A stretch of DNA of 64,000 nucleotides from Escherichia coli (GTDB lineage Bacteria > Pseudomonadota > Gammaproteobacteria > Enterobacterales > Enterobacteriaceae): NCBI RefSeq assembly GCF_024223415.1, contig NZ_CP100500.1. One strand, written 5' to 3'. The position numbers were made by a program, and so were the translations under genes. Of this stretch, positions 33,436 to 44,432 are shown piece after piece (the first letter of the stretch is position 1; every line of letters starts with the position of its first letter). Below the pieces are notes generated by a model. The model made no database searches, was not told where the DNA came from, and was given only the letters and a program-made list of their open reading frames with translations.

Positions 33436-34599
33436 GTGGAACAGATTAATTCAAATAAAAAACATTCTAACAGAAGAAAATACTTTTCTTTATTGGCGAT
33501 AGTTTTATTTATTGCGTTTTCAGGTGCTTATGCCTATTGGTCAATGGAATTAGAAGACATGATTAGTACAGATGACGCCTATGTCACGGGGAATGCAGAT
33601 CCAATTTCTGCACAAGTCTCAGGTAGTGTCACTGTAGTTAATCATAAAGATACGAACTACGTTCGACAGGGTGACATTTTAGTTTCACTGGATAAAACTG
33701 ATGCCACTATCGCACTCAATAAAGCTAAAAATAATCTGGCAAATATTGTTCGGCAAACGAATAAACTGTACTTACAGGATAAACAATACAGTGCCGAAGT
33801 CGCTTCAGCACGTATTCAGTATCAACAATCTTTAGAAGATTATAACCGTCGTGTGCCTTTAGCGAAGCAGGGGGTTATTTCAAAAGAAACGCTGGAGCAT
33901 ACCAAAGATACGTTAATAAGTAGCAAAGCGGCATTGAATGCCGCTATCCAGGCTTATAAAGCGAATAAAGCTTTAGTAATGAACACACCATTAAACCGTC
34001 AGCCACAAGTCGTTGAAGCTGCGGATGCAACCAAAGAAGCCTGGTTGGCGCTTAAACGTACGGATATTAAGAGTCCGGTTACCGGCTATATTGCCCAGAG
34101 AAGTGTTCAGGTCGGCGAAACAGTGAGCCCCGGACAATCGTTAATGGCTGTCGTACCGGCACGTCAAATGTGGGTTAATGCCAACTTTAAAGAAACACAA
34201 CTCACGGATGTACGGATTGGTCAATCGGTCAATATTATCAGCGATCTTTATGGTGAAAATGTTGTGTTTCATGGCCGGGTGACAGGGATCAATATGGGAA
34301 CCGGCAATGCGTTCTCCTTATTACCTGCACAAAATGCGACAGGGAACTGGATCAAAATCGTTCAGCGTGTACCGGTTGAAGTTTCTCTTGATCCAAAAGA
34401 ACTCATGGAACACCCCTTGCGCATTGGTTTATCGATGACTGCAACTATTGATATGAAGGACGAAGACATTGCTGAGATGCCTGATCTGGCTTCAACCGTG
34501 ACCTCCATGCCTGCTTATACCAGTAAGGCTTTAGTTATCGATACCAGTCCGATAGAAAAAGAAATTAGCAACATTATTTCGCATAATGGACAACTTTAA
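33436..34599 (+). CDS. emrK: Multidrug efflux membrane fusion protein EmrK
   Basis: 387-aa ORF with an N-terminal TM anchor and HlyD-like periplasmic adaptor region. Confidence 0.9.
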   Translation: MEQINSNKKHSNRRKYFSLLAIVLFIAFSGAYAYWSMELEDMISTDDAYVTGNADPISAQVSGSVTVVNHKDTNYVRQGDILVSLDKTDATIALNKAKNNLANIVRQTNKLYLQDKQYSAEVASARIQYQQSLEDYNRRVPLAKQGVISKETLEHTKDTLISSKAALNAAIQAYKANKALVMNTPLNRQPQVVEAADATKEAWLALKRTDIKSPVTGYIAQRSVQVGETVSPGQSLMAVVPARQMWVNANFKETQLTDVRIGQSVNIISDLYGENVVFHGRVTGINMGTGNAFSLLPAQNATGNWIKIVQRVPVEVSLDPKELMEHPLRIGLSMTATIDMKDEDIAEMPDLASTVTSMPAYTSKALVIDTSPIEKEISNIISHNGQL

Positions 34600-36137
34600 T
34601 GGCAATCACTAAATCAACTCCGGCACCATTAACCGGTGGGACGTTATGGTGCGTCACTATTGCATTGTCATTAGCGACGTTTATGCAAATGTTGGATTCC
34701 ACTATTTCTAACGTCGCAATACCGACAATATCTGGCTTTCTGGGAGCATCAACAGACGAAGGCACCTGGGTTATCACCTCGTTTGGCGTAGCAAATGCCA
34801 TTGCGATCCCTGTTACCGGCAGGCTGGCACAAAGAATAGGCGAATTAAGGTTATTTTTACTTTCAGTCACTTTTTTTTCGCTGTCTTCCTTAATGTGTAG
34901 TTTATCGACCAATCTTGATGTGCTGATATTTTTTAGAGTCGTTCAGGGATTAATGGCGGGGCCGTTAATTCCACTGTCACAGAGTTTATTATTAAGGAAT
35001 TATCCACCAGAAAAAAGAACATTTGCTCTGGCATTATGGTCTATGACCGTGATTATCGCTCCGATATGTGGGCCGATATTAGGCGGTTATATTTGTGATA
35101 ACTTTAGCTGGGGTTGGATATTTTTAATCAATGTCCCTATGGGGATTATCGTCCTGACATTATGCTTAACCTTACTTAAAGGAAGAGAAACTGAGACTTC
35201 ACCGGTCAAAATGAATCTACCAGGACTGACCCTGTTAGTGCTCGGTGTTGGTGGCTTGCAAATTATGCTTGATAAAGGGCGCGATCTGGATTGGTTCAAC
35301 TCGAGTACAATAATAATATTAACAGTAGTATCAGTTATTTCTCTGATCTCTTTAGTCATTTGGGAGTCGACCTCAGAGAACCCGATTCTTGATCTCAGTT
35401 TGTTTAAGTCCCGTAACTTCACCATTGGTATTGTGAGTATCACATGCGCGTATTTATTTTACTCTGGAGCGATAGTCCTTATGCCGCAGTTACTCCAGGA
35501 AACAATGGGGTATAATGCGATTTGGGCTGGGCTTGCTTATGCGCCCATCGGCATCATGCCGCTATTAATATCACCTTTGATAGGACGTTATGGCAACAAA
35601 ATTGATATGCGGTTGTTGGTGACATTTAGTTTTTTAATGTATGCGGTTTGCTATTACTGGCGTTCTGTGACATTTATGCCAACGATTGATTTTACAGGCA
35701 TCATTTTGCCACAGTTTTTTCAGGGATTCGCCGTCGCCTGTTTCTTTTTACCCTTAACAACGATTTCGTTTTCAGGTTTGCCAGATAATAAATTTGCCAA
35801 TGCCTCGAGTATGAGTAATTTTTTTCGTACCTTGTCAGGATCAGTTGGTACGTCGTTGACAATGACGCTGTGGGGACGCCGAGAATCATTACACCATAGT
35901 CAGTTGACAGCAACCATCGATCAATTTAACCCCGTGTTTAATTCATCGTCACAAATTATGGATAAATACTATGGTTCGCTTTCAGGGGTTCTTAATGAAA
36001 TTAATAATGAAATAACTCAGCAGTCACTTTCAATTTCTGCAAATGAGATTTTCCGTATGGCGGCTATTGCTTTTATCTTACTTACGGTATTGGTTTGGTT
36101 TGCGAAACCGCCGTTTACAGCGAAAGGTGTTGGGTGA
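34599..36137 (+). CDS. emrY: MFS (DHA2) multidrug efflux pump EmrY
   Basis: 512-aa 14-TM MFS ORF whose start overlaps the emrK stop. Confidence 0.9.
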   Translation: MAITKSTPAPLTGGTLWCVTIALSLATFMQMLDSTISNVAIPTISGFLGASTDEGTWVITSFGVANAIAIPVTGRLAQRIGELRLFLLSVTFFSLSSLMCSLSTNLDVLIFFRVVQGLMAGPLIPLSQSLLLRNYPPEKRTFALALWSMTVIIAPICGPILGGYICDNFSWGWIFLINVPMGIIVLTLCLTLLKGRETETSPVKMNLPGLTLLVLGVGGLQIMLDKGRDLDWFNSSTIIILTVVSVISLISLVIWESTSENPILDLSLFKSRNFTIGIVSITCAYLFYSGAIVLMPQLLQETMGYNAIWAGLAYAPIGIMPLLISPLIGRYGNKIDMRLLVTFSFLMYAVCYYWRSVTFMPTIDFTGIILPQFFQGFAVACFFLPLTTISFSGLPDNKFANASSMSNFFRTLSGSVGTSLTMTLWGRRESLHHSQLTATIDQFNPVFNSSSQIMDKYYGSLSGVLNEINNEITQQSLSISANEIFRMAAIAFILLTVLVWFAKPPFTAKGVG

Positions 36138-36245: not shown

Positions 36246-37574
36246 TTAGCGGCCTTTTGCCAGATATTGCTCCATCTCTTCTTCCGGCACCATTCCACCT
36301 CCCGTCGCCCACACCAGATGAGTGGCATTACGCAGTTGTTCTGCGCTGAAACCGTGCATCTGTTGGTAACTTACTGATGCGCACACGCGCTGAGGCCCGG
36401 CCATACCCGCCAGTGCCGAAGGTTCAAGACGAATACCTTCTTCCTGCGTCAGCCAGCCAAGCATGTCATACATGGTTGGATCGCTAAGGGTATAGAAGCC
36501 ATCCAGCAGACGCTCCATTGCCCGCCCGACAAAGCCTGATGCGCGACCAACAGCAAGGCCATCCGCTGCGGTAAGGTTGTCGATACCAATATCCTGAACA
36601 GAGATCTGATCGTGTAATCCTGTATGGACGCCTAACAGCATACAAGGGGAGTGCGTTGGTTCGGCAAAAAAACAGTGAACATGATCGCCAAACGCCAGTT
36701 TAAGTCCGAATGCGACGCCACCAGGACCACCGCCAACACCACACGGCAGATAGACAAACAGAGGGTTATCAGCATCGACGATACGACCTTGCTCGGCAAA
36801 TTGCGCTTTAAGACGCTGGCCAGCGACGGAATACCCAAGGAACAACGTGCGGGAATTTTCGTCATCAATAAAGAAACAGTTCGGGTCAGACTGCGCTGCT
36901 TTACGTCCTTCCTCGACGGCAACACCATAATCTTGCTCATATTCCACGACCGTAACGCCATGGCTGCGCAGTTTCGCTTTTTTCCATGCCCGGGCATCAG
37001 CAGACATATGCACTGTCACCTTAAAGCCAATGCGGGCGCTCATAATGCCGATTGATAACCCCAGATTTCCGGTTGAGCCCACAGCAATGCTGTATTGGCT
37101 AAAGAACTGTTTAAACTCCGGAGAAAGCAGTTTGCTGTAGTCATCATCAAGCGTCAGCAACCCCGCTTCCAGAGCCAGTTTTTCTGCGTGTGCCAGGACT
37201 TCATAAATCCCGCCGCGTGCTTTTATGGAGCCGGAAATGGGCAAATGGCTATCTTTTTTCAGTAACAGTTGCCCGCTGATCGGTTGTTGATATTCCTTTT
37301 CCAGCCGTTTTTGCATAGCCGGAATGGCAACCAGTTCTGATTCAATAATCCCCCCAGTGGCAGCAGTTTCAGGAAATGCTTTTGCCAGATAGGGTGCAAA
37401 ACGGGATAAGCGCGCATGGGCGTCCTGAACATCCTGTTCGGTCAGGCCAACATAAGGTAAACCTTCAGCCAATGAGGTCGTGCCAGGATTAAACCAGGTG
37501 GTTTCTTTAAGAGCAACCAGATCCTTTACCAACGGATACTGGGCGATGAGCGAGTTCATTTTAGCGTTTTCCAT
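36246..37574 (-). CDS. dsdA: D-serine ammonia-lyase (D-serine dehydratase)
   Basis: 442-aa ORF starting [31 protein letters not shown], with the PLP-lysine region SGSIKARGG. Confidence 0.95.
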
Positions 37575-37591: not shown

Positions 37592-37810
37592 TTAGATGAT
37601 AAATGACAGCAGGAATGTGCCCGCCAGAGCGACGACTGAAGCGATAAATGTCGCTGTCGTATAGTATTTAAATGTTTCATTGAGCGTAGCGCCGCAATAT
37701 TGCTTCACCAGCCAGAAAAGCGAGTCCGTAACGATCGTGCAGCCAATCGCGCCTGAACCGATAGCAATCGTAATAATTTCCGGGCTGATGTCGGGATACA
37801 GCGGCAGCAC
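37592..37810 (-). pseudogene. dsdX: 3' remnant of D-serine permease gene dsdX (C-terminal ~72 codons only)
   Basis: Short ORF encoding the GntP-family C-terminal TM segments ([56 protein letters not shown]) directly upstream of dsdA; no N-terminal coding sequence follows, only the cscR upstream region. Confidence 0.75.
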
Positions 37811-38040
37811 AATGATCCATATTTATATTTTCTTCTCCAGGTTGGCGATGCCAGTTGGCATGTTTTACTTACTTGCCTATATGGTTACTCGTTGGCGAGA
37901 ACAGAGGCGGAATTGGGGACAATTGTCCGGGAATTATTGTTATTTTTTATTGTATTGCCGTGTCAGGTGATAGGGCGTTGGATCTCGCCAGTGACGTCTG
38001 TTTCTGCTACAGTGCCCGTTTTACGGCAAACGGCTTGGAT

Positions 38041-39036
38041 ATGGCTTCATTAAAGGATGTCGCACGCCTGGCGGGAGTGTCGATGATGACAGTCTCCCGG
38101 GTGATGCATAATGCAGAATCTGTGCGTCCTGCAACGCGTGACCGCGTATTGCAGGCAATCCAGACCCTGAATTATGTTCCTGATCTTTCCGCCCGTAAGA
38201 TGCGCGCTCAAGGACGTAAGCCGTCGACTCTCGCCGTGCTGGCGCAGGACACTGCTACCACTCCTTTCTCTGTTGATATTCTGCTTGCCATTGAGCAAAC
38301 CGCCAGCGAGTTCGGCTGGAATAGTTTTTTAATCAATATTTTTTCTGAAGATGACGCTGCCCGCGCGGCACGTCAGCTGCTTGCTCACCGTCCGGATGGC
38401 ATTATCTATACTACAATGGGGCTGCGACATATCACGCTGCCTGAGTCTCTGTATGGTGAAAATATTGTATTGGCGAACTGTGTGGCGGATGACCCAGCGT
38501 TACCCAGTTATATCCCTGATGATTACACTGCACAATATGAATCAACACAGCATTTGCTCGCGGCGGGCTATCGTCAACCGTTATGCTTCTGGCTACCGGA
38601 AAGTGCGTTGGCAACAGGGTATCGTCGGCAGGGATTTGAGCAGGCCTGGCGTGATGCTGGACGAGATCTGGCTGAGGTGAAACAATTTCACATGGCAACA
38701 GGTGATGATCACTACACCGATCTCGCAAGTTTACTCAATGACCACTTCAAATCGGGCAAACCAGATTTTGATGTTCTGATATGTGGTAACGATCGCGCAG
38801 CCTTTGTGGCTTATCAGGTTCTCCTGGCGAAGGGGGTACGTATCCCGCAGGATGTCGCCGTAATGGGCTTTGATAATCTGGTTGGCGTCGGGCATCTGTT
38901 TTTACCGCCGCTGACCACAATTCAGCTTCCACATGACATTATCGGGCGGGAAGCTGCATTGCATATTATTGAAGGTCGTGAAGGGGGAAGTGTGACGCGG
39001 ATCCCTTGCCCGCTGTTGATCCGTTGTTCCACCTGA
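38041..39036 (+). CDS. cscR: LacI-family sucrose operon repressor CscR
   Basis: ORF 37855..39036; a 331-aa product from MASLKDVARLAGVSMMTVSRVMHN has a LacI-type HTH followed by a periplasmic-binding-protein-like domain. Confidence 0.85.
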   Translation: MASLKDVARLAGVSMMTVSRVMHNAESVRPATRDRVLQAIQTLNYVPDLSARKMRAQGRKPSTLAVLAQDTATTPFSVDILLAIEQTASEFGWNSFLINIFSEDDAARAARQLLAHRPDGIIYTTMGLRHITLPESLYGENIVLANCVADDPALPSYIPDDYTAQYESTQHLLAAGYRQPLCFWLPESALATGYRRQGFEQAWRDAGRDLAEVKQFHMATGDDHYTDLASLLNDHFKSGKPDFDVLICGNDRAAFVAYQVLLAKGVRIPQDVAVMGFDNLVGVGHLFLPPLTTIQLPHDIIGREAALHIIEGREGGSVTRIPCPLLIRCST

Positions 39037-39043
39037 TATTATG

Positions 39044-40486
39044 CTAACCCAGTTGCCAGAGTGCTCCATGTTGCACCACAGCCACTCCGTGGGAGGCATA
39101 AAGCGACAGTTCCCGTTCTTCTGGCTGCGGATAGATTCGACTACTCATCACCGCTTCCCCGTCGTTAATAAATACTTCCACGGATGATGTATCGATAAAT
39201 ATCCTTAGGGCGAGCGTCTCACCCTGCGGGAGGAGAATACTACGGTAGCCGTCTAAATTCTCGTGTGGGTAATACCGCCACAAAACAAGTCGCTCAGATT
39301 GGTTATCAATATACAGCCGCATTCCTGTGCCGAGCTGTAATCCGTAATGTTCGGCATCACTGTTCTTCAGCGCCCACTGCAACTGAATCTCAACTGCTTG
39401 CGCGTTTTCCTGCAAAACATATTTATTGCTGATTGTGCGGGGAGAGATAGATTGATGCTGCTGGCGTAACGACTCAGCTTCGTGTACCGGGCGTTGTAGA
39501 AGTTTGCCATTGCTCTCTGATAGCTCGCGCGCCAGCGTCATGCAGCCTGCCCAGCCTTCACGTTTTGAGGGCATTGGCGATTCCCACATATCCATCCAGC
39601 CGATAACAATACGCCGACCATCCTTCGCTACAAAGCTTTGTGGTGCATAAAAGTCATGCCCGTTATCAAGTTCAGTAAAATGCCCGGATTGTGCAAAAAG
39701 TCGTCCTGGCGACCACATTTCGGGTATTACGCCACTTTGAAAGCGATTTCGGTAACTGTATCCCTCGGCCTTCATTCCCTGCGGGGAAAACATCAGATAA
39801 TGCTGATCGCCAAGGCTGAAAAAGTCCGGACATTCCCACATATAGCTTTCACCCGCATCAGCGTGGGCCAGTACGCGATCGAAAGTCCATTCACGTAATG
39901 AACTGCCGCGATAAAGCAGGATCTGCCCCGTGTTGCCTGGGTCTTTCGCCCCGACTACCATCCACCATGAGTCGGCTTCACGCCACACTTTAGGATCGCG
40001 GAAGTGCATGATTCCTTCTGGTGGAGTGAGGATCACACCCTGTTTCTCGAAATGAATACCATCCCGACTGGTAGCCAGACATTGTACTTCGCGAATTGCA
40101 TCGTCATTACCTGCACCATCGAGCCAGACGTGTCCGGTGTAGATAAGTGAGAGGACACCATTGTCATCGACAGCACTACCTGAAAAACACCCGTCTTTGT
40201 CATTCTCGTCTCCTGGCGCTAGCGCAATAGGCTCATGCTGCCAGTGGATCATATCGTCGCTGGTGGCATGTCCCCAGTGCATTGGCCCCCAGTGTTCGCT
40301 CATCGGGTGATGTTGATAAAACGCGTGATAACGATTGTTAAACCAGATCAGGCCGTTTGGATCGTTCATCCACCCGGCAGGAGGCGCGAGGTGAAAATGG
40401 GGATAGAAAGTGTTACCTCGGCGCTCGTGAAGTTTTGCTAGTGCGTTTTGCGCCGCATGCAATCGAGATTGCGTCATTTTTATCAT
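39044..40486 (-). CDS. cscA: Sucrose-6-phosphate hydrolase / invertase CscA (GH32)
   Basis: 480-aa ORF with GH32 motifs (WMNDPNG, FRDP, EC); the true start may be Met-4 (MTQSRLHAAQ) at 40477. Confidence 0.9.
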   Translation of the reverse strand: MIKMTQSRLHAAQNALAKLHERRGNTFYPHFHLAPPAGWMNDPNGLIWFNNRYHAFYQHHPMSEHWGPMHWGHATSDDMIHWQHEPIALAPGDENDKDGCFSGSAVDDNGVLSLIYTGHVWLDGAGNDDAIREVQCLATSRDGIHFEKQGVILTPPEGIMHFRDPKVWREADSWWMVVGAKDPGNTGQILLYRGSSLREWTFDRVLAHADAGESYMWECPDFFSLGDQHYLMFSPQGMKAEGYSYRNRFQSGVIPEMWSPGRLFAQSGHFTELDNGHDFYAPQSFVAKDGRRIVIGWMDMWESPMPSKREGWAGCMTLARELSESNGKLLQRPVHEAESLRQQHQSISPRTISNKYVLQENAQAVEIQLQWALKNSDAEHYGLQLGTGMRLYIDNQSERLVLWRYYPHENLDGYRSILLPQGETLALRIFIDTSSVEVFINDGEAVMSSRIYPQPEERELSLYASHGVAVVQHGALWQLG

Positions 40487-40510
40487 CCTGGTTAAGCAAA
40501 TTTGGTGAAT

Positions 40511-40524
40511 TGTTAACGTTAACT
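40511..40524. promoter_or_regulatory. Candidate CscR operator (copy 1) in the cscA-cscK divergent promoter region
   Basis: TGTTAACGTTAACT, with palindromic core GTTAACGTTAAC; an identical copy lies 64 nt away. Confidence 0.45.
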
Positions 40525-40574
40525 TTAATAAAAATAAAGTCCCTTACTTTCATAAATGCGATGAATATCACAAA

Positions 40575-40588
40575 TGTTAACGTTAACT
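40575..40588. promoter_or_regulatory. Candidate CscR operator (copy 2)
   Basis: Second exact copy of TGTTAACGTTAACT. A CRP-like half-site TGTGATCGAATATGCA follows at about 40598..40613. Confidence 0.45.
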
Positions 40589-40692
40589 ATGACATTTTGT
40601 GATCGAATATGCATGTTTTAGTTAATCCATGACGATTTTGCGAAAAAGAGGTTTATCACTATGCGTAAGTCAGATGAATTTAAGGGAAAAAA

Positions 40693-41607
40693 ATGTCAGC
40701 CAAAGTATGGGTTTTAGGGGATGCGGTAGTAGATCTCTTGCCAGAATCAGACGGGCGCCTACTGCCTTGTCCTGGCGGCGCGCCAGCTAACGTTGCGGTG
40801 GGAATCGCCAGATTAGGCGGAATAAGTGGGTTTATAGGTCGGGTCGGTGATGATCCTTTTGGTGCATTAATGCAAAGAACGCTGCTAACTGAGGGAGTCG
40901 ATATCACGTATCTGAAGCAAGATGAATGGCACCGGACATCCACGGTGCTTGTCGATCTGAACGATCAAGGGGAACGTTCATTTACGTTTATGGTCCGCCC
41001 CAGTGCCGATCTTTTTTTAGAGACGACAGACTTGCCCTGCTGGCGACATGGCGAATGGTTACATCTCTGTTCAATTGCGTTGTCTGCCGAGCCTTCGCGT
41101 ACCAGCGCATTTACTGCGATGACGGCGATCCGGCATGCCGGAGGTTTTGTCAGCTTCGATCCCAATATTCGTGAAGATCTATGGCAAGACGAGCATTTGC
41201 TCCGCTTGTGTTTGCGGCAGGCGCTACAACTGGCGGATGTCGTCAAGCTCTCGGAAGAAGAATGGCGACTTATCAGTGGAAAAACACAGAACGATCGGGA
41301 TATATGCGCCCTGGCAAAAGAGTATGAGATCGCCATGCTGTTGGTGACTAAAGGTGCAGAAGGGGTGGTGGTCTGTTATCGAGGACAAGTTCACCATTTT
41401 GCTGGAATGTCTGTGAATTGTGTTGATAGCACGGGGGCGGGAGATGCGTTCGTTGCCGGGTTACTCACAGGTCTGTCCTCTACGGGATTATCTACAGATG
41501 AGAGAGAAATGCGACGAATTATCGATCTCGCTCAACGTTGCGGAGCGCTTGCAGTAACAGCGAAAGGGGCAATGACAGCGCTGCCATGTCGACAAGAACT
41601 GGAATAG
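40693..41607 (+). CDS. cscK: Fructokinase CscK (PfkB/ribokinase family)
   Basis: 304-aa ORF with PfkB-family motifs (N-terminal GDAVVD, C-terminal DSTGAGDAF). Confidence 0.9.
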   Translation: MSAKVWVLGDAVVDLLPESDGRLLPCPGGAPANVAVGIARLGGISGFIGRVGDDPFGALMQRTLLTEGVDITYLKQDEWHRTSTVLVDLNDQGERSFTFMVRPSADLFLETTDLPCWRHGEWLHLCSIALSAEPSRTSAFTAMTAIRHAGGFVSFDPNIREDLWQDEHLLRLCLRQALQLADVVKLSEEEWRLISGKTQNDRDICALAKEYEIAMLLVTKGAEGVVVCYRGQVHHFAGMSVNCVDSTGAGDAFVAGLLTGLSSTGLSTDEREMRRIIDLAQRCGALAVTAKGAMTALPCRQELE

Positions 41608-41678
41608 TGAGAAGTAAACGGCGAAGTCGCTCTTATCTCTAAATAGGACGTGAATTTTTTAACGACAGGCAGGTAATT

Positions 41679-42926
41679 ATGGCACTGAATATTCCATTCA
41701 GAAATGCGTACTATCGTTTTGCATCCAGTTACTCATTTCTCTTTTTTATTTCCTGGTCGCTGTGGTGGTCGTTATACGCTATTTGGCTGAAAGGACATCT
41801 AGGGTTGACAGGGACGGAATTAGGTACACTTTATTCGGTCAACCAGTTTACCAGCATTCTATTTATGATGTTCTACGGCATCGTTCAGGATAAACTCGGT
41901 CTGAAGAAACCGCTCATCTGGTGTATGAGTTTCATCCTGGTCTTGACCGGACCGTTTATGATTTACGTTTATGAACCGTTACTGCAAAGCAATTTTTCTG
42001 TAGGTCTAATTCTGGGGGCGCTCTTTTTTGGCCTGGGGTATCTGGCGGGATGCGGTTTGCTTGACAGCTTCACCGAAAAAATGGCGCGAAATTTTCATTT
42101 CGAATATGGAACAGCGCGCGCCTGGGGATCTTTTGGCTATGCTATTGGCGCGTTCTTTGCCGGCATATTTTTTAGTATCAGTCCCCATATCAACTTCTGG
42201 TTGGTCTCGCTATTTGGCGCTGTATTTATGATGATCAACATGTGTTTTAAAGATAAGGATCACCAGTGCGTAGCGGCGGATGCGGGAGGGGTAAAAAAAG
42301 AGGATTTTATCGCAGTTTTCAAGGATCGAAACTTCTGGGTTTTCGTCATATTTATTGTTGGGACGTGGTCTTTCTATAACATTTTTGATCAACAACTTTT
42401 TCCTGTTTTTTATGCAGGTTTATTCGAATCACACGATGTAGGAACGCGCCTGTATGGTTATCTCAACTCATTCCAGGTGGTACTCGAAGCGCTGTGCATG
42501 GCGATTATTCCTTTCTTTGTGAATCGGATAGGGCCAAAAAATGCATTACTTATCGGTGTTGTGATTATGGCGTTGCGTATCCTTTCCTGCGCGCTGTTCG
42601 TTAACCCCTGGATTATTTCATTAGTGAAGCTGTTACATGCCATTGAGGTTCCACTTTGTGTCATATCCGTCTTCAAATACAGCGTGGCAAACTTTGATAA
42701 GCGCCTGTCGTCGACGATCTTTCTGATTGGTTTTCAAATTGCCAGTTCGCTTGGGATTGTGCTGCTTTCAACGCCGACTGGGATACTCTTTGACCACGCA
42801 GGCTACCAGACAGTTTTCTTCGCAATTTCGGGTATTGTCTGCCTGATGTTGCTATTTGGCATTTTCTTCCTGAGTAAAAAACGCGAGCAAATAGTTATGG
42901 AAACGCCTGTACCTTCAGCAATATAG
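41679..42926 (+). CDS. cscB: Sucrose:H+ symporter CscB (MFS oligosaccharide:H+ symporter family)
   Basis: 415-aa 12-TM ORF starting MALNIPFRNAYYRFASSYSFLFFISWSLWWSLYAIWL, LacY-like. Confidence 0.9.
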   Translation: MALNIPFRNAYYRFASSYSFLFFISWSLWWSLYAIWLKGHLGLTGTELGTLYSVNQFTSILFMMFYGIVQDKLGLKKPLIWCMSFILVLTGPFMIYVYEPLLQSNFSVGLILGALFFGLGYLAGCGLLDSFTEKMARNFHFEYGTARAWGSFGYAIGAFFAGIFFSISPHINFWLVSLFGAVFMMINMCFKDKDHQCVAADAGGVKKEDFIAVFKDRNFWVFVIFIVGTWSFYNIFDQQLFPVFYAGLFESHDVGTRLYGYLNSFQVVLEALCMAIIPFFVNRIGPKNALLIGVVIMALRILSCALFVNPWIISLVKLLHAIEVPLCVISVFKYSVANFDKRLSSTIFLIGFQIASSLGIVLLSTPTGILFDHAGYQTVFFAISGIVCLMLLFGIFFLSKKREQIVMETPVPSAI

Positions 42927-43349
42927 ACGTAAACTTTTTCCGGTCGTTGTCGATATCTCCATATCCTTCAATCGGAAAATAATAATACTAAAATGCTTAG
43001 CCCTGCTAATAATCACCTATGTTCTGGTACAGTCGCTCAAATGTACTCCGGATACACGGTTCGCTGATTTCCAGGACATTGTCGTCATTCAGCGACCTGT
43101 CCCGTGTATCACGGGCCTGCAAATTCATCAAGGAATGCATTGCGGAGTGAAGTATCGAGTCACGCCGTATTTCGCTATCAGGATTCTGTGTGATGGTTAC
43201 ATCGCCCGGCCCAGGGCTGTTTAGTCATCAGCGCTTTCTGACAGTGCTGAGATTTCAACCTGTTGCAGTAAAAATGAGTAGATATAGGGCAAGTGTGCTG
43301 CCAAACCCATCTTTTATGGGGTGAAGGTAGATTTCGTTTGAAGGGTATC

Positions 43350-43424
43350 TGGTGTCCCCTGCAGGAATCGAACCTGCAATTAGCCCTTAGGAGGGGCTCG
43401 TTATATCCATTTAACTAAGAGGAC
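43350..43424 (-). tRNA. argW: tRNA-Arg (anticodon CCU)
   Basis: Reverse complement reads GTCCTCTTAGTTAAATGGATATAACGAGCCCCTCCTAAGGGCTAATTGCAGGTTCGATTCCTGCAGGGGACACCA, with the anticodon loop CT-CCT-AA; its 3' end faces cscB. Confidence 0.9.
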
Positions 43425-43499: not shown

Positions 43500-44432
43500 T
43501 TATGCCGGGTTTTTATCATTTTTCTTAATGTTTTCCGCACGTTCTGCTTTTTGGCGTGCTTCTGCTTTGCGCTTGTTGCTCATGTCGTTACGGATCTGTG
43601 CATGACTCATTAACGCGAAGATAAAGGTGCCGCCGCAGATGTTCCCCGCTAAAGTAGGTAGTGCGAAGGGCCAGATGAAATCGCTCCAGTGCAGCGTACC
43701 GTTAAACACCAGATAGAGGATTTCTACAGAACCGACAACGATGTGAGTGGTGTCACCCAGGGCAATAAGCCAGGTCATCAATATAATCACCACAATCTTT
43801 GCCGCACCCGCTGCAGGAAACATCCATACCATAGTGGCGATCAGCCAGCCGGAAATGATCGCGTTGGCAAACATCTCGCTGGGGGTGTTCTTCATCACAT
43901 CCATGCCGATTTTGACAAATGCATCGCGAGTTTCTTCATTGAAGATTGGCATATATTCAAATGCCCACGCCGCAATACCTGTCCCGAGAATATTACCCAG
44001 CAGCACGACGCCCCATAACCGCATAAGTAAGCCAACGTTGCTCATTGTCGGTTTTTGCATGACGGGTAGTACCGCAGTCACGGTGTTTTCGGTAAATAAT
44101 TGCTGGCGGGCCATAATGACGATAATAAAACCAAAGGTATAACCGAGATTCTCCAGCAAGAAGCTGCCCGGCACACCTTCCAGTTCGACATGAAATATCC
44201 CTTTTGCCAGTAATGAAGCGCCCATCGACAGACCCGCCGCAATGGCTGACCACAGTAGTGCCATTGCGTCGCGTTCCAGCTCTTTTTCACCATCCTGGCG
44301 GATATGCTCATGAATTGCCATCGCCCGGGAGGGGAGTCGATCTTCATCTATTTCTATTTTTTTGCCACGCTCTTTTTCTTCGCTCTCAACTTCAATTTCG
44401 TCGCTGTGTTGATCAATTTTGTCGTTGTCCAT
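43500..44432 (-). CDS. yfdC: Formate/nitrite transporter-family inner membrane protein YfdC
   Basis: ORF 43500..44549; a 310-aa product from internal Met MDNDKIDQHSDEIE, a polytopic FNT-like membrane protein. Confidence 0.8.
   Translation of the reverse strand: MDNDKIDQHSDEIEVESEEKERGKKIEIDEDRLPSRAMAIHEHIRQDGEKELERDAMALLWSAIAAGLSMGASLLAKGIFHVELEGVPGSFLLENLGYTFGFIIVIMARQQLFTENTVTAVLPVMQKPTMSNVGLLMRLWGVVLLGNILGTGIAAWAFEYMPIFNEETRDAFVKIGMDVMKNTPSEMFANAIISGWLIATMVWMFPAAGAAKIVVIILMTWLIALGDTTHIVVGSVEILYLVFNGTLHWSDFIWPFALPTLAGNICGGTFIFALMSHAQIRNDMSNKRKAEARQKAERAENIKKNDKNPA

Follow-up and report, generated by a model that had tools for sequence, protein, structure and literature searches.

The spacer between cscB and argW of Escherichia coli: a probable composite scar of a former CP4-like island

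The argW-dsdCXA/csc region

In many strains of E. coli the cscRAKB genes lie beside argW, where they replace dsdC and most of dsdX, and argW itself is regarded as a hot spot for recombination and phage integration (Jahreis 2002 and Moritz & Welch 2006 (J Clin Microbiol), as reported in PMC11251922, PMC13054288, PMC4366372 and PMC3032704). The arrangement of the csc genes between dsdA with its truncated neighbor dsdX' on one side and argW on the other has been described (PMC11251922, PMC3032704). The accessible parts of the literature on this region (PMC11251922, PMC13054288, PMC4366372, PMC3032704) contain no description of what the DNA between cscB and argW is made of. Strain K-12 lacks this spacer and has the order argW - CPS-53 - pawZ - 95 nt - dsdC. 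CPS-53, also called KplE1, occupies the same argW site, and its distal tRNA-derived relic, pawZ, repeats 15 nt of the argW 3' end. Another relevant class of elements is formed by the CP4-like islands, which are of the P4-integrase type and possess a distal module that runs ...Ag43 - DUF932 - KlcA - RadC/YeeS - YeeT - CbeA - CbtA - YeeW/DUF5983 - DUF957 - DUF4942. The involvement of a mobile element that uses argW was reportedly proposed already by the authors of Jahreis 2002 (J Bacteriol).

The window, by which we mean the whole 64-kb stretch of DNA that was analysed, contains the argW-dsdCXA/csc variable region, and the remainder of it is ordinary core chromosome. Table 1 presents the features of the locus. 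The genes cscR, cscA, cscK and cscB are found in the described arrangement between dsdA/dsdX' and argW. The latter is intact, is identical to the argW of strain BH100N at 75/75 positions and presents its 3' end (43350) to the spacer. Over this region the window is 100% identical to strain SCU-316, in which cscB is annotated as an oligosaccharide MFS transporter. SCU-316 belongs to phylogroup E / ST57; it is csc+ and, with no obvious defect, does not grow on sucrose (PMC11251922).

As a side observation, the window differs from O157, W and BH100N by five lineage-specific substitutions in CscA (D48N, T170S, N236K, G253E and P415L) and by V284I in CscB. Comparison of the two proteins with those of O157, W and BH100N did not identify a cause of the sucrose-negative phenotype. 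D48N was considered as a cause and rejected, because the catalytic motif WMNDPNG is preserved and N is likewise the residue at position 48 in Citrobacter.

Table 1. Coordinates of the features at the csc-argW locus of the window
Feature	Position	Strand	Basis or remark
emrY	34599-36137	+	
dsdA	36246-37574	-	
dsdX 3' remnant	37592-37809	-	annotated as partial DsdX in SCU-316
csc-linked DNA, 190 nt	37810-37999		between dsdX remnant and Citrobacter-shared homology (from 38000)
cscR	38041-39036	+	
cscA	39044-40477	-	
cscK	40693-41607	+	
cscB (sucrose permease)	41679-42926	+	ORF; the spacer begins after its stop codon
cscB-argW spacer	42927-43349		423 bp, 45% G+C
csc cassette 3' flank (part A)	42927 to ~43000		blastn homology to Citrobacter amalonaticus csc loci
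Imperfect palindrome/hairpin TTTTTCCGGTyG ... CAAyCGGAAAA	42936-42979		inside csc 3' flank; fold z-score -1.0
Residual 44-aa ORF within DUF4942 fragment	43006-43140	-	60-68 aa counterparts in other strains
DUF4942 (PF13708) internal gene fragment, pseudogene (part B)	~43015-43283	-	tblastn, Pfam, blastn
18-bp deletion site, lineage-specific	43018/43019		alignments to other csc+ genomes
argW-proximal stub (part C)	43284-43349		local alignment to argW-island arm
argW, tRNA-Arg(CCU), intact	43350-43424	-	ARAGORN; Rfam tRNA 63.4 bits
yfdC	43500-44432	-	

Composition of the spacer

The first-pass annotation described about 420 bp of non-coding DNA between cscB and the 3' end of argW, with no integrase, no recombination directionality factor (RDF) and no obvious direct repeat of the argW 3' end. 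Each part of this description is borne out. The longest ORFs in the spacer are of 43-44 aa. When four argW-associated integrases (IntS, the 396-aa integrase of an island, that of a P4-like satellite and the 441-aa lambdoid integrase) were used as tblastn queries, nothing better than an E value of 2.1 was obtained against the spacer, and a comparable search with the RDF TorI gave no match. Pfam scans of the six-frame peptides (11 of the 14 peptides of at least 20 aa) returned DUF4942 as the sole family in the spacer and no integrase. The suggestion that fragments of an integrase pseudogene might survive here is not supported by either kind of search. Across the 64-kb window the terminal 23-mer of argW, with up to 3 mismatches allowed, matched only argW itself. 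The terminal 15-mer matched one additional site with 3 mismatches, at 63202, which is at chance level since 35 of 100 shuffled sequences reached the same count. The partial direct repeat that had been anticipated at 37.6-38.1 kb is therefore missing there and elsewhere in the window, as are a pawZ-like repeat, IntS and TorI. In short, of the hallmarks of an integrase-type island, the integrase, the distal tRNA repeat and an RDF of the TorI/Xis type are all absent from the spacer. The hallmark that it does show is that strains differ in having it, at a chromosomal site that is conserved.

One caveat attaches to the term non-coding, in that RefSeq calls an ORF of 44-68 aa within the spacer. In SCU-316 its product is named "hypothetical protein", and in many other genomes the automated annotation already labels it "DUF4942 domain-containing protein". 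As will be seen below, this ORF is a pseudogene remnant. The spacer consists of three parts, which we refer to as A, B and C in the order from cscB to argW.

Part A belongs to the imported csc cassette, as its native 3' flank. Two csc loci of Citrobacter amalonaticus (L015 and L019) are homologous by blastn to positions 38000-42994 of the window. Between 42927 and 42994, 57-61 of the 68 positions are identical (84-90%), and from 42995 to 43012 the identity drops to 7-10 of 18. The assignment of part A follows from this pattern, in which the homology to Citrobacter continues through 42994 and then fades. In Citrobacter a gene with an MCPsignal domain comes after cscB, and the homology to E. coli fades around its start codon. 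An extension of the homology into the first codons of this MCP gene was considered and rejected, because the 7-10 identities in 18 positions beyond 42994 are too weak. The Citrobacter cassette has neighbors of its own, lying between a ytfT/yjfF-like ABC permease gene and fbp-mpl-pmbA, and since its homology to E. coli stops near the start of the MCP gene, the Citrobacter copy did not simply descend from that of E. coli. This context contrasts with the suggestion that such csc loci arose by transfer from E. coli (PMC11251922).

Part A also contains an imperfect palindrome that is conserved in E. coli and Citrobacter. It lacks a U-tail and is not a canonical terminator, and in the window copy two substitutions weaken the stem. 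The hairpin could act as a stabilizer of the mRNA 3' end or as a binding site for a protein, and this conserved element may well be important for cscB.

Part B is not a gene; it is what decay has left of an internal piece of one, a DUF4942 pseudogene fragment. It covers residues ~38-143 of a protein of 281 aa, in two reading frames. Residues 76-143 are encoded in one frame, from 43224 down to 43021, and tblastn with two intact 281-aa DUF4942 proteins gave 51-53% identity over this segment (E values of 2e-16 to 5e-16). Residues 38-65 lie in another frame, from 43283 down to 43200, which contains an in-frame stop (tblastn E value of 7e-4). The Pfam profile PF13708 matched with 27.2 bits against a cut-off of 25 (E value of 3.5e-6), over profile positions 7-60 of 190, so that the family is recognized by its profile in a sequence that has neither a complete domain nor an intact frame of ~281 aa. 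At the nucleotide level, a blastn search of 5426 complete E. coli genomes with a sensitive setting revealed 72-76% identity to full-length DUF4942 genes of 846 nt at other loci in 1825 other genomes. Over 68 codons the differences from the functional genes fall evenly on the three codon positions (21/16/26), and two functional DUF4942 genes differ from each other by 1/1/5 over the same stretch.

The window copy of this fragment is slightly shorter than most. At 43018/43019 most csc+ genomes have AATCCAAACACCTCATTC, which encodes DUF4942 residues ~144-149, and in most strains, including O157:H7, the homology to DUF4942 reaches residue 151. No intact relative with more than ~50% amino acid identity to the fragment was encountered among 5.8 billion protein clusters or 1.84 billion representatives, and the best matches of the exhaustive search of the representatives were 46-52% identical. 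A word-indexed protein search returned only the same remnant locus, including ORFs that read through into a copy of argW. A single NCBI protein of 122 aa, encoded on a contig of 1547 bp, has an RnfA/RsxA-like N-terminus (PF02508) fused to the DUF4942 remnant, the remnant part starting at "...GPGDVTITQ". This fusion points to either a rearrangement or an assembly error that affects the locus in some genome.

The family to which part B belongs has a characteristic position. CP4-like islands carry a module with the order Ag43/Cah - DUF932 - antirestriction - JAB/RadC - DUF987 - YeeU/CbeA - CbtA - DUF5983 - DUF957 - DUF4942, of which the intact DUF4942 gene is the terminal member, located at the end farthest from the integrase and reading outward. 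The fragment in the window, on the minus strand, reads away from argW just as the copies in intact islands read away from their tRNA genes. What is found next to argW is thus a fragment of an island-specific gene, in the orientation that it has in islands, adjoining a tRNA gene that serves as an attachment site.

Part C, the 66 nt between the DUF4942 fragment and argW, has no detectable coding similarity. Positions 43311-43334 (TTTTATGGGGTGAAGGTAGATTTC) match the integrase-side arm of an extant argW island at 21 of 24 nt; the arm used for this comparison is the sequence between argW and the 396-aa tyrosine integrase of strain MEC2025-PR. The motif is located 14-15 nt from argW, at the same offset as in the extant arm, and the score of the match was reached by 1 of 5000 shuffled sequences. 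Four control sequences gave no significant match to the stub, namely the IntS-side arms of K-12 and O157, the arm of a P4-like satellite and the K-12 flank from pawZ to dsdC. This native flank of 95 nt has no similarity to any part of the spacer. In a search of the whole database the 24-nt similarity is too short to be significant, and it is weaker in the copy from a divergent Escherichia. When an 88-nt argW-proximal piece was compared with all of the E. coli genomes it was found only in those that are csc+, and the similarity of the stub to the island arm is consequently visible only in the targeted comparison. The 66 nt could also be, in part, diverged N-terminal coding sequence of the DUF4942 gene.

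Linkage to csc, rate of change and present use of argW

The spacer was found in 2631 of the 5426 complete genomes and cscB in 2648, and in these ~2630-2650 genomes the spacer and csc are always located between dsdA and argW/yfdC. Genomes without csc, such as K-12, lack the spacer, which is confined essentially to those that are csc+. The first-pass annotation named, as the outcome that would speak against its interpretation, that the segment be core sequence, conserved and syntenic in genomes without the island, and the absence from csc-negative genomes disposes of this objection.

That the csc genes form an island integrated at argW is not what the junctions show. On the left, the csc block ends in a truncation inside dsdX at 37809, where the homology to K-12 dsdX ends, and on the right it ends inside the DUF4942 relic, at ~43000-43015. 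Neither edge is an att site. O157:H7, KO11FL (a derivative of strain W) and BH100N have the same dsdX truncation and the same DUF4942 junction. A divergent Escherichia, ~90% identical, possesses the same dsdX remnant, csc and a shorter spacer of 257 rather than 423 nt, from which ~165 nt are absent. Since every E. coli lineage that was examined has identical junctions, the replacement of dsd by csc appears to have originated once. The 190 nt of DNA next to the dsdX remnant (Table 1) found no match outside csc+ E. coli, and the length of this segment differs among strains by a 12-bp indel.

Within the csc+ genomes the spacer is variable in sequence. Only 5 genomes have a spacer that is at least 99% identical to that of the window, and 2442 fall in the band of 90-95%. 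In comparison with BH100N the spacer has a substitution divergence of 6.4% at aligned positions, in addition to indels, and cscB diverges by 4.8% at third codon positions. From these two values, the spacer is drifting at about the neutral (synonymous) rate.

The argW gene is a site in present use. The order cscB - spacer - argW - yfdC is uninterrupted in 1410 genomes. In ~1200 others an insertion lies between the spacer and argW, and a partial copy of argW abuts the stub, which thereby forms the host-side flank of these later integrations. In O157 the copy measures 23 nt and accompanies an IntS prophage remnant; a copy of 15 nt accompanies a prophage end of the TorI type; in NIID080884 a 19-nt copy occurs with a CP4-like island that is followed by a second prophage in tandem; and a copy of ~68 nt occurs with a lambdoid prophage that carries the 441-aa integrase. 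KplE1-like prophages insert beside the spacer in many csc+ strains. In 266 genomes argW is occupied by an island that has the CP4-like module, oriented like the fragment in the window, and the islands that were inspected end at yeeU/cbeA and do not contain DUF4942.

Some further observations concern these elements. At least four kinds use argW: the KplE1-like prophages of the IntS/TorI type, the CP4-like island with the 396-aa integrase, the P4-like satellite and the lambdoid phage with the 441-aa integrase. The duplicated argW cores that we measured are of 15, 19, 23 and ~68 nt, and two elements can sit in tandem. Four database entries that are described as coliphage genomes and contain csc (ON470622.1 and three siblings) are in fact records of prophage regions with host flanks that extend from cscA to yfdC. 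The prophage of the ON470622.1 type is lambdoid, carries the 441-aa integrase and a retron-type reverse transcriptase, and is bounded by a duplication that covers ~68 nt of argW, the integrase lying beside the copy next to the spacer.

Origin of the spacer and comparison with known systems

The spacer is probably a composite scar, non-functional in itself, of a CP4-like island that formerly occupied argW and was cut both by the acquisition of csc and by a deletion of the island body. According to this model, the island would have had its integrase beside the tRNA gene and DUF4942 at its far end, reading away. One rearrangement would have fused the csc cassette to DUF4942 near codon 151, at the cost of the 3' half of that gene, of the distal att repeat and native flank, and of dsdC together with 1.1 kb of dsdX. 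Another deletion would have taken the body of the island, starting with the integrase at ~50-65 bp beyond argW and stopping near codon 33-38 of DUF4942. The segment 43284-43349 would then be the stub of the integrase-side arm of the former island. Throughout these events argW would have stayed intact and available as an attachment site, so that new prophages and islands could insert between the scar and the tRNA gene. The first-pass annotation had offered a choice between an ancient island with eroded mobility genes and the deletion of an earlier element integrated at argW. The DUF4942 relic and the stub favor the second of these, although the relic that remains is not that of an integrase. 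No intermediate was found, whether a genome with a longer DUF4942 gene beside cscB or an argW island that ends in an intact DUF4942 gene, and it is therefore only from orientation and position that we infer that the island resided at the argW of this lineage and did not come in with csc. The number of deletions likewise belongs to the model.

Two other accounts take the spacer to be something other than island debris. That it might be ancestral core intergenic DNA 3' of argW, with a fortuitous similarity to DUF4942, can be set aside with near certainty: K-12 and about half of the E. coli genomes do not have it, and the similarity to DUF4942, with a tblastn E value of ~1e-16 and a score above the Pfam curated cut-off, already refutes an explanation by chance. 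It is also very improbable that the spacer or part of it is maintained as a functional element, be it a terminator or stabilizing hairpin for cscB, a 3' trailer or terminator for argW, a small RNA or a small protein of 44-68 aa. Some observations are in keeping with such a role. The 68 nt that bear the hairpin are 84-90% identical between E. coli and Citrobacter, compared with ~55% for the last 47 nt of the cscB coding sequence; transcription of argW has to end somewhere within the spacer; and a small ORF is called there by PGAP. Against it, no Rfam family was detected in the spacer at E values up to 1, the only match being the tRNA itself; promoter and terminator scans gave counts at or below chance and no terminator was called; and the folds of the argW trailer and of the cscB trailer are not unusual (z-scores of -0.9 and -1.0). 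Moreover, the length of the small ORF changes from strain to strain (44, 60 or 68 aa), the window has the 18-bp deletion as well as the substitutions that weaken the stem, the divergence is close to the synonymous rate, and ~165 nt are absent in the divergent Escherichia. The best reading is that the spacer has no function of its own, and a role of parts B and C as a terminator, small RNA or micro-ORF is unlikely.

A more serious competitor, which we nevertheless consider rather unlikely, holds that csc, the DUF4942 fragment and the stub entered as one block and that the island was never independently present at the argW of the recipient. A donor would have captured csc in or beside a CP4-like island, and either the island or a recombinant segment that extended from argW to dsdX would have delivered the block. 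The near-perfect linkage of the spacer to cscB fits such a co-import equally well. The identical junctions in all of the E. coli lineages examined and the shortened block in the divergent Escherichia also speak for it. In addition, no intact gene of E. coli is closely related to the fragment (72-76% nucleotide identity at best), and the csc cassette is clearly foreign and keeps a 3' flank of the Citrobacter type. However, in Citrobacter amalonaticus the cassette is flanked by the ytfT/yjfF-like permease gene and by fbp, and neither island genes nor a tRNA gene lie nearby. Furthermore, the cassette meets DUF4942 in the middle of the gene, and its left edge is a truncation of dsdX without an att repeat; these are the marks of illegitimate junctions and not of the ends of an island. 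Finally, DUF4942 is normally the terminal gene, and cargo located beyond it would depart from the usual architecture. We therefore retain the former argW island, reduced to a scar in place, as the preferred explanation.

It is conceivable, but doubtful in our view, that the DUF4942 fragment and the stub are all that is left of the vehicle by which csc reached Escherichia, an argW-targeting CP4-like island that would have acquired a cscRAKB-mcp segment from a genome like that of Citrobacter and, once csc had been delivered, would have lost its mobility genes. If this were so, the scar would be a datable marker of a single founding transfer of csc, which set up the dichotomy between sucrose and D-serine utilization among the phylogroups of E. 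coli.

The replacement of dsd by csc at argW is a known phenomenon, to which the three-part anatomy of the spacer adds detail and no new mechanism. This anatomy explains how a csc block can lie at argW without an integrase or att sites, its edges being illegitimate and located inside dsdX and inside a dead island gene. It also identifies as pseudogene debris the small ORFs that are annotated here as DUF4942 or hypothetical proteins in thousands of RefSeq genomes. The scar provides a shared-derived marker for the single origin of the csc/dsd replacement, which is of ecological interest because it underlies the difference in sucrose and D-serine utilization among commensal, EHEC and UPEC strains.

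The nearest counterparts of this locus can now be compared with it. Compared with CPS-53/KplE1, in which the distal relic is an att repeat, the relic in the window is a fragment of a cargo gene. The extant argW island with the 396-aa tyrosine integrase (MEC2025-PR, O26:H11 11368 and NIID080884) shares the site and the orientation of the module, and in csc+ strains it is present in addition to the spacer, next to which it lies with a 19-nt attR of its own. Because it ends at yeeU/cbeA and lacks DUF4942, this island is a relative of the source of the relic and not the source itself. In comparison with the CP4-like islands, the spacer keeps only residues ~38-143 of the 281 of DUF4942, interrupted by a frameshift and a stop, and the remaining genes of the module, the integrase and both att repeats are gone. 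The family and the orientation of this fragment are those of the CP4-like islands as a class (for example CP4-44, CP4-6, CP4-57 and the island at selC of BL21), and it is ~50% identical in amino acid sequence and 72-76% identical in nucleotide sequence to their living DUF4942 genes.
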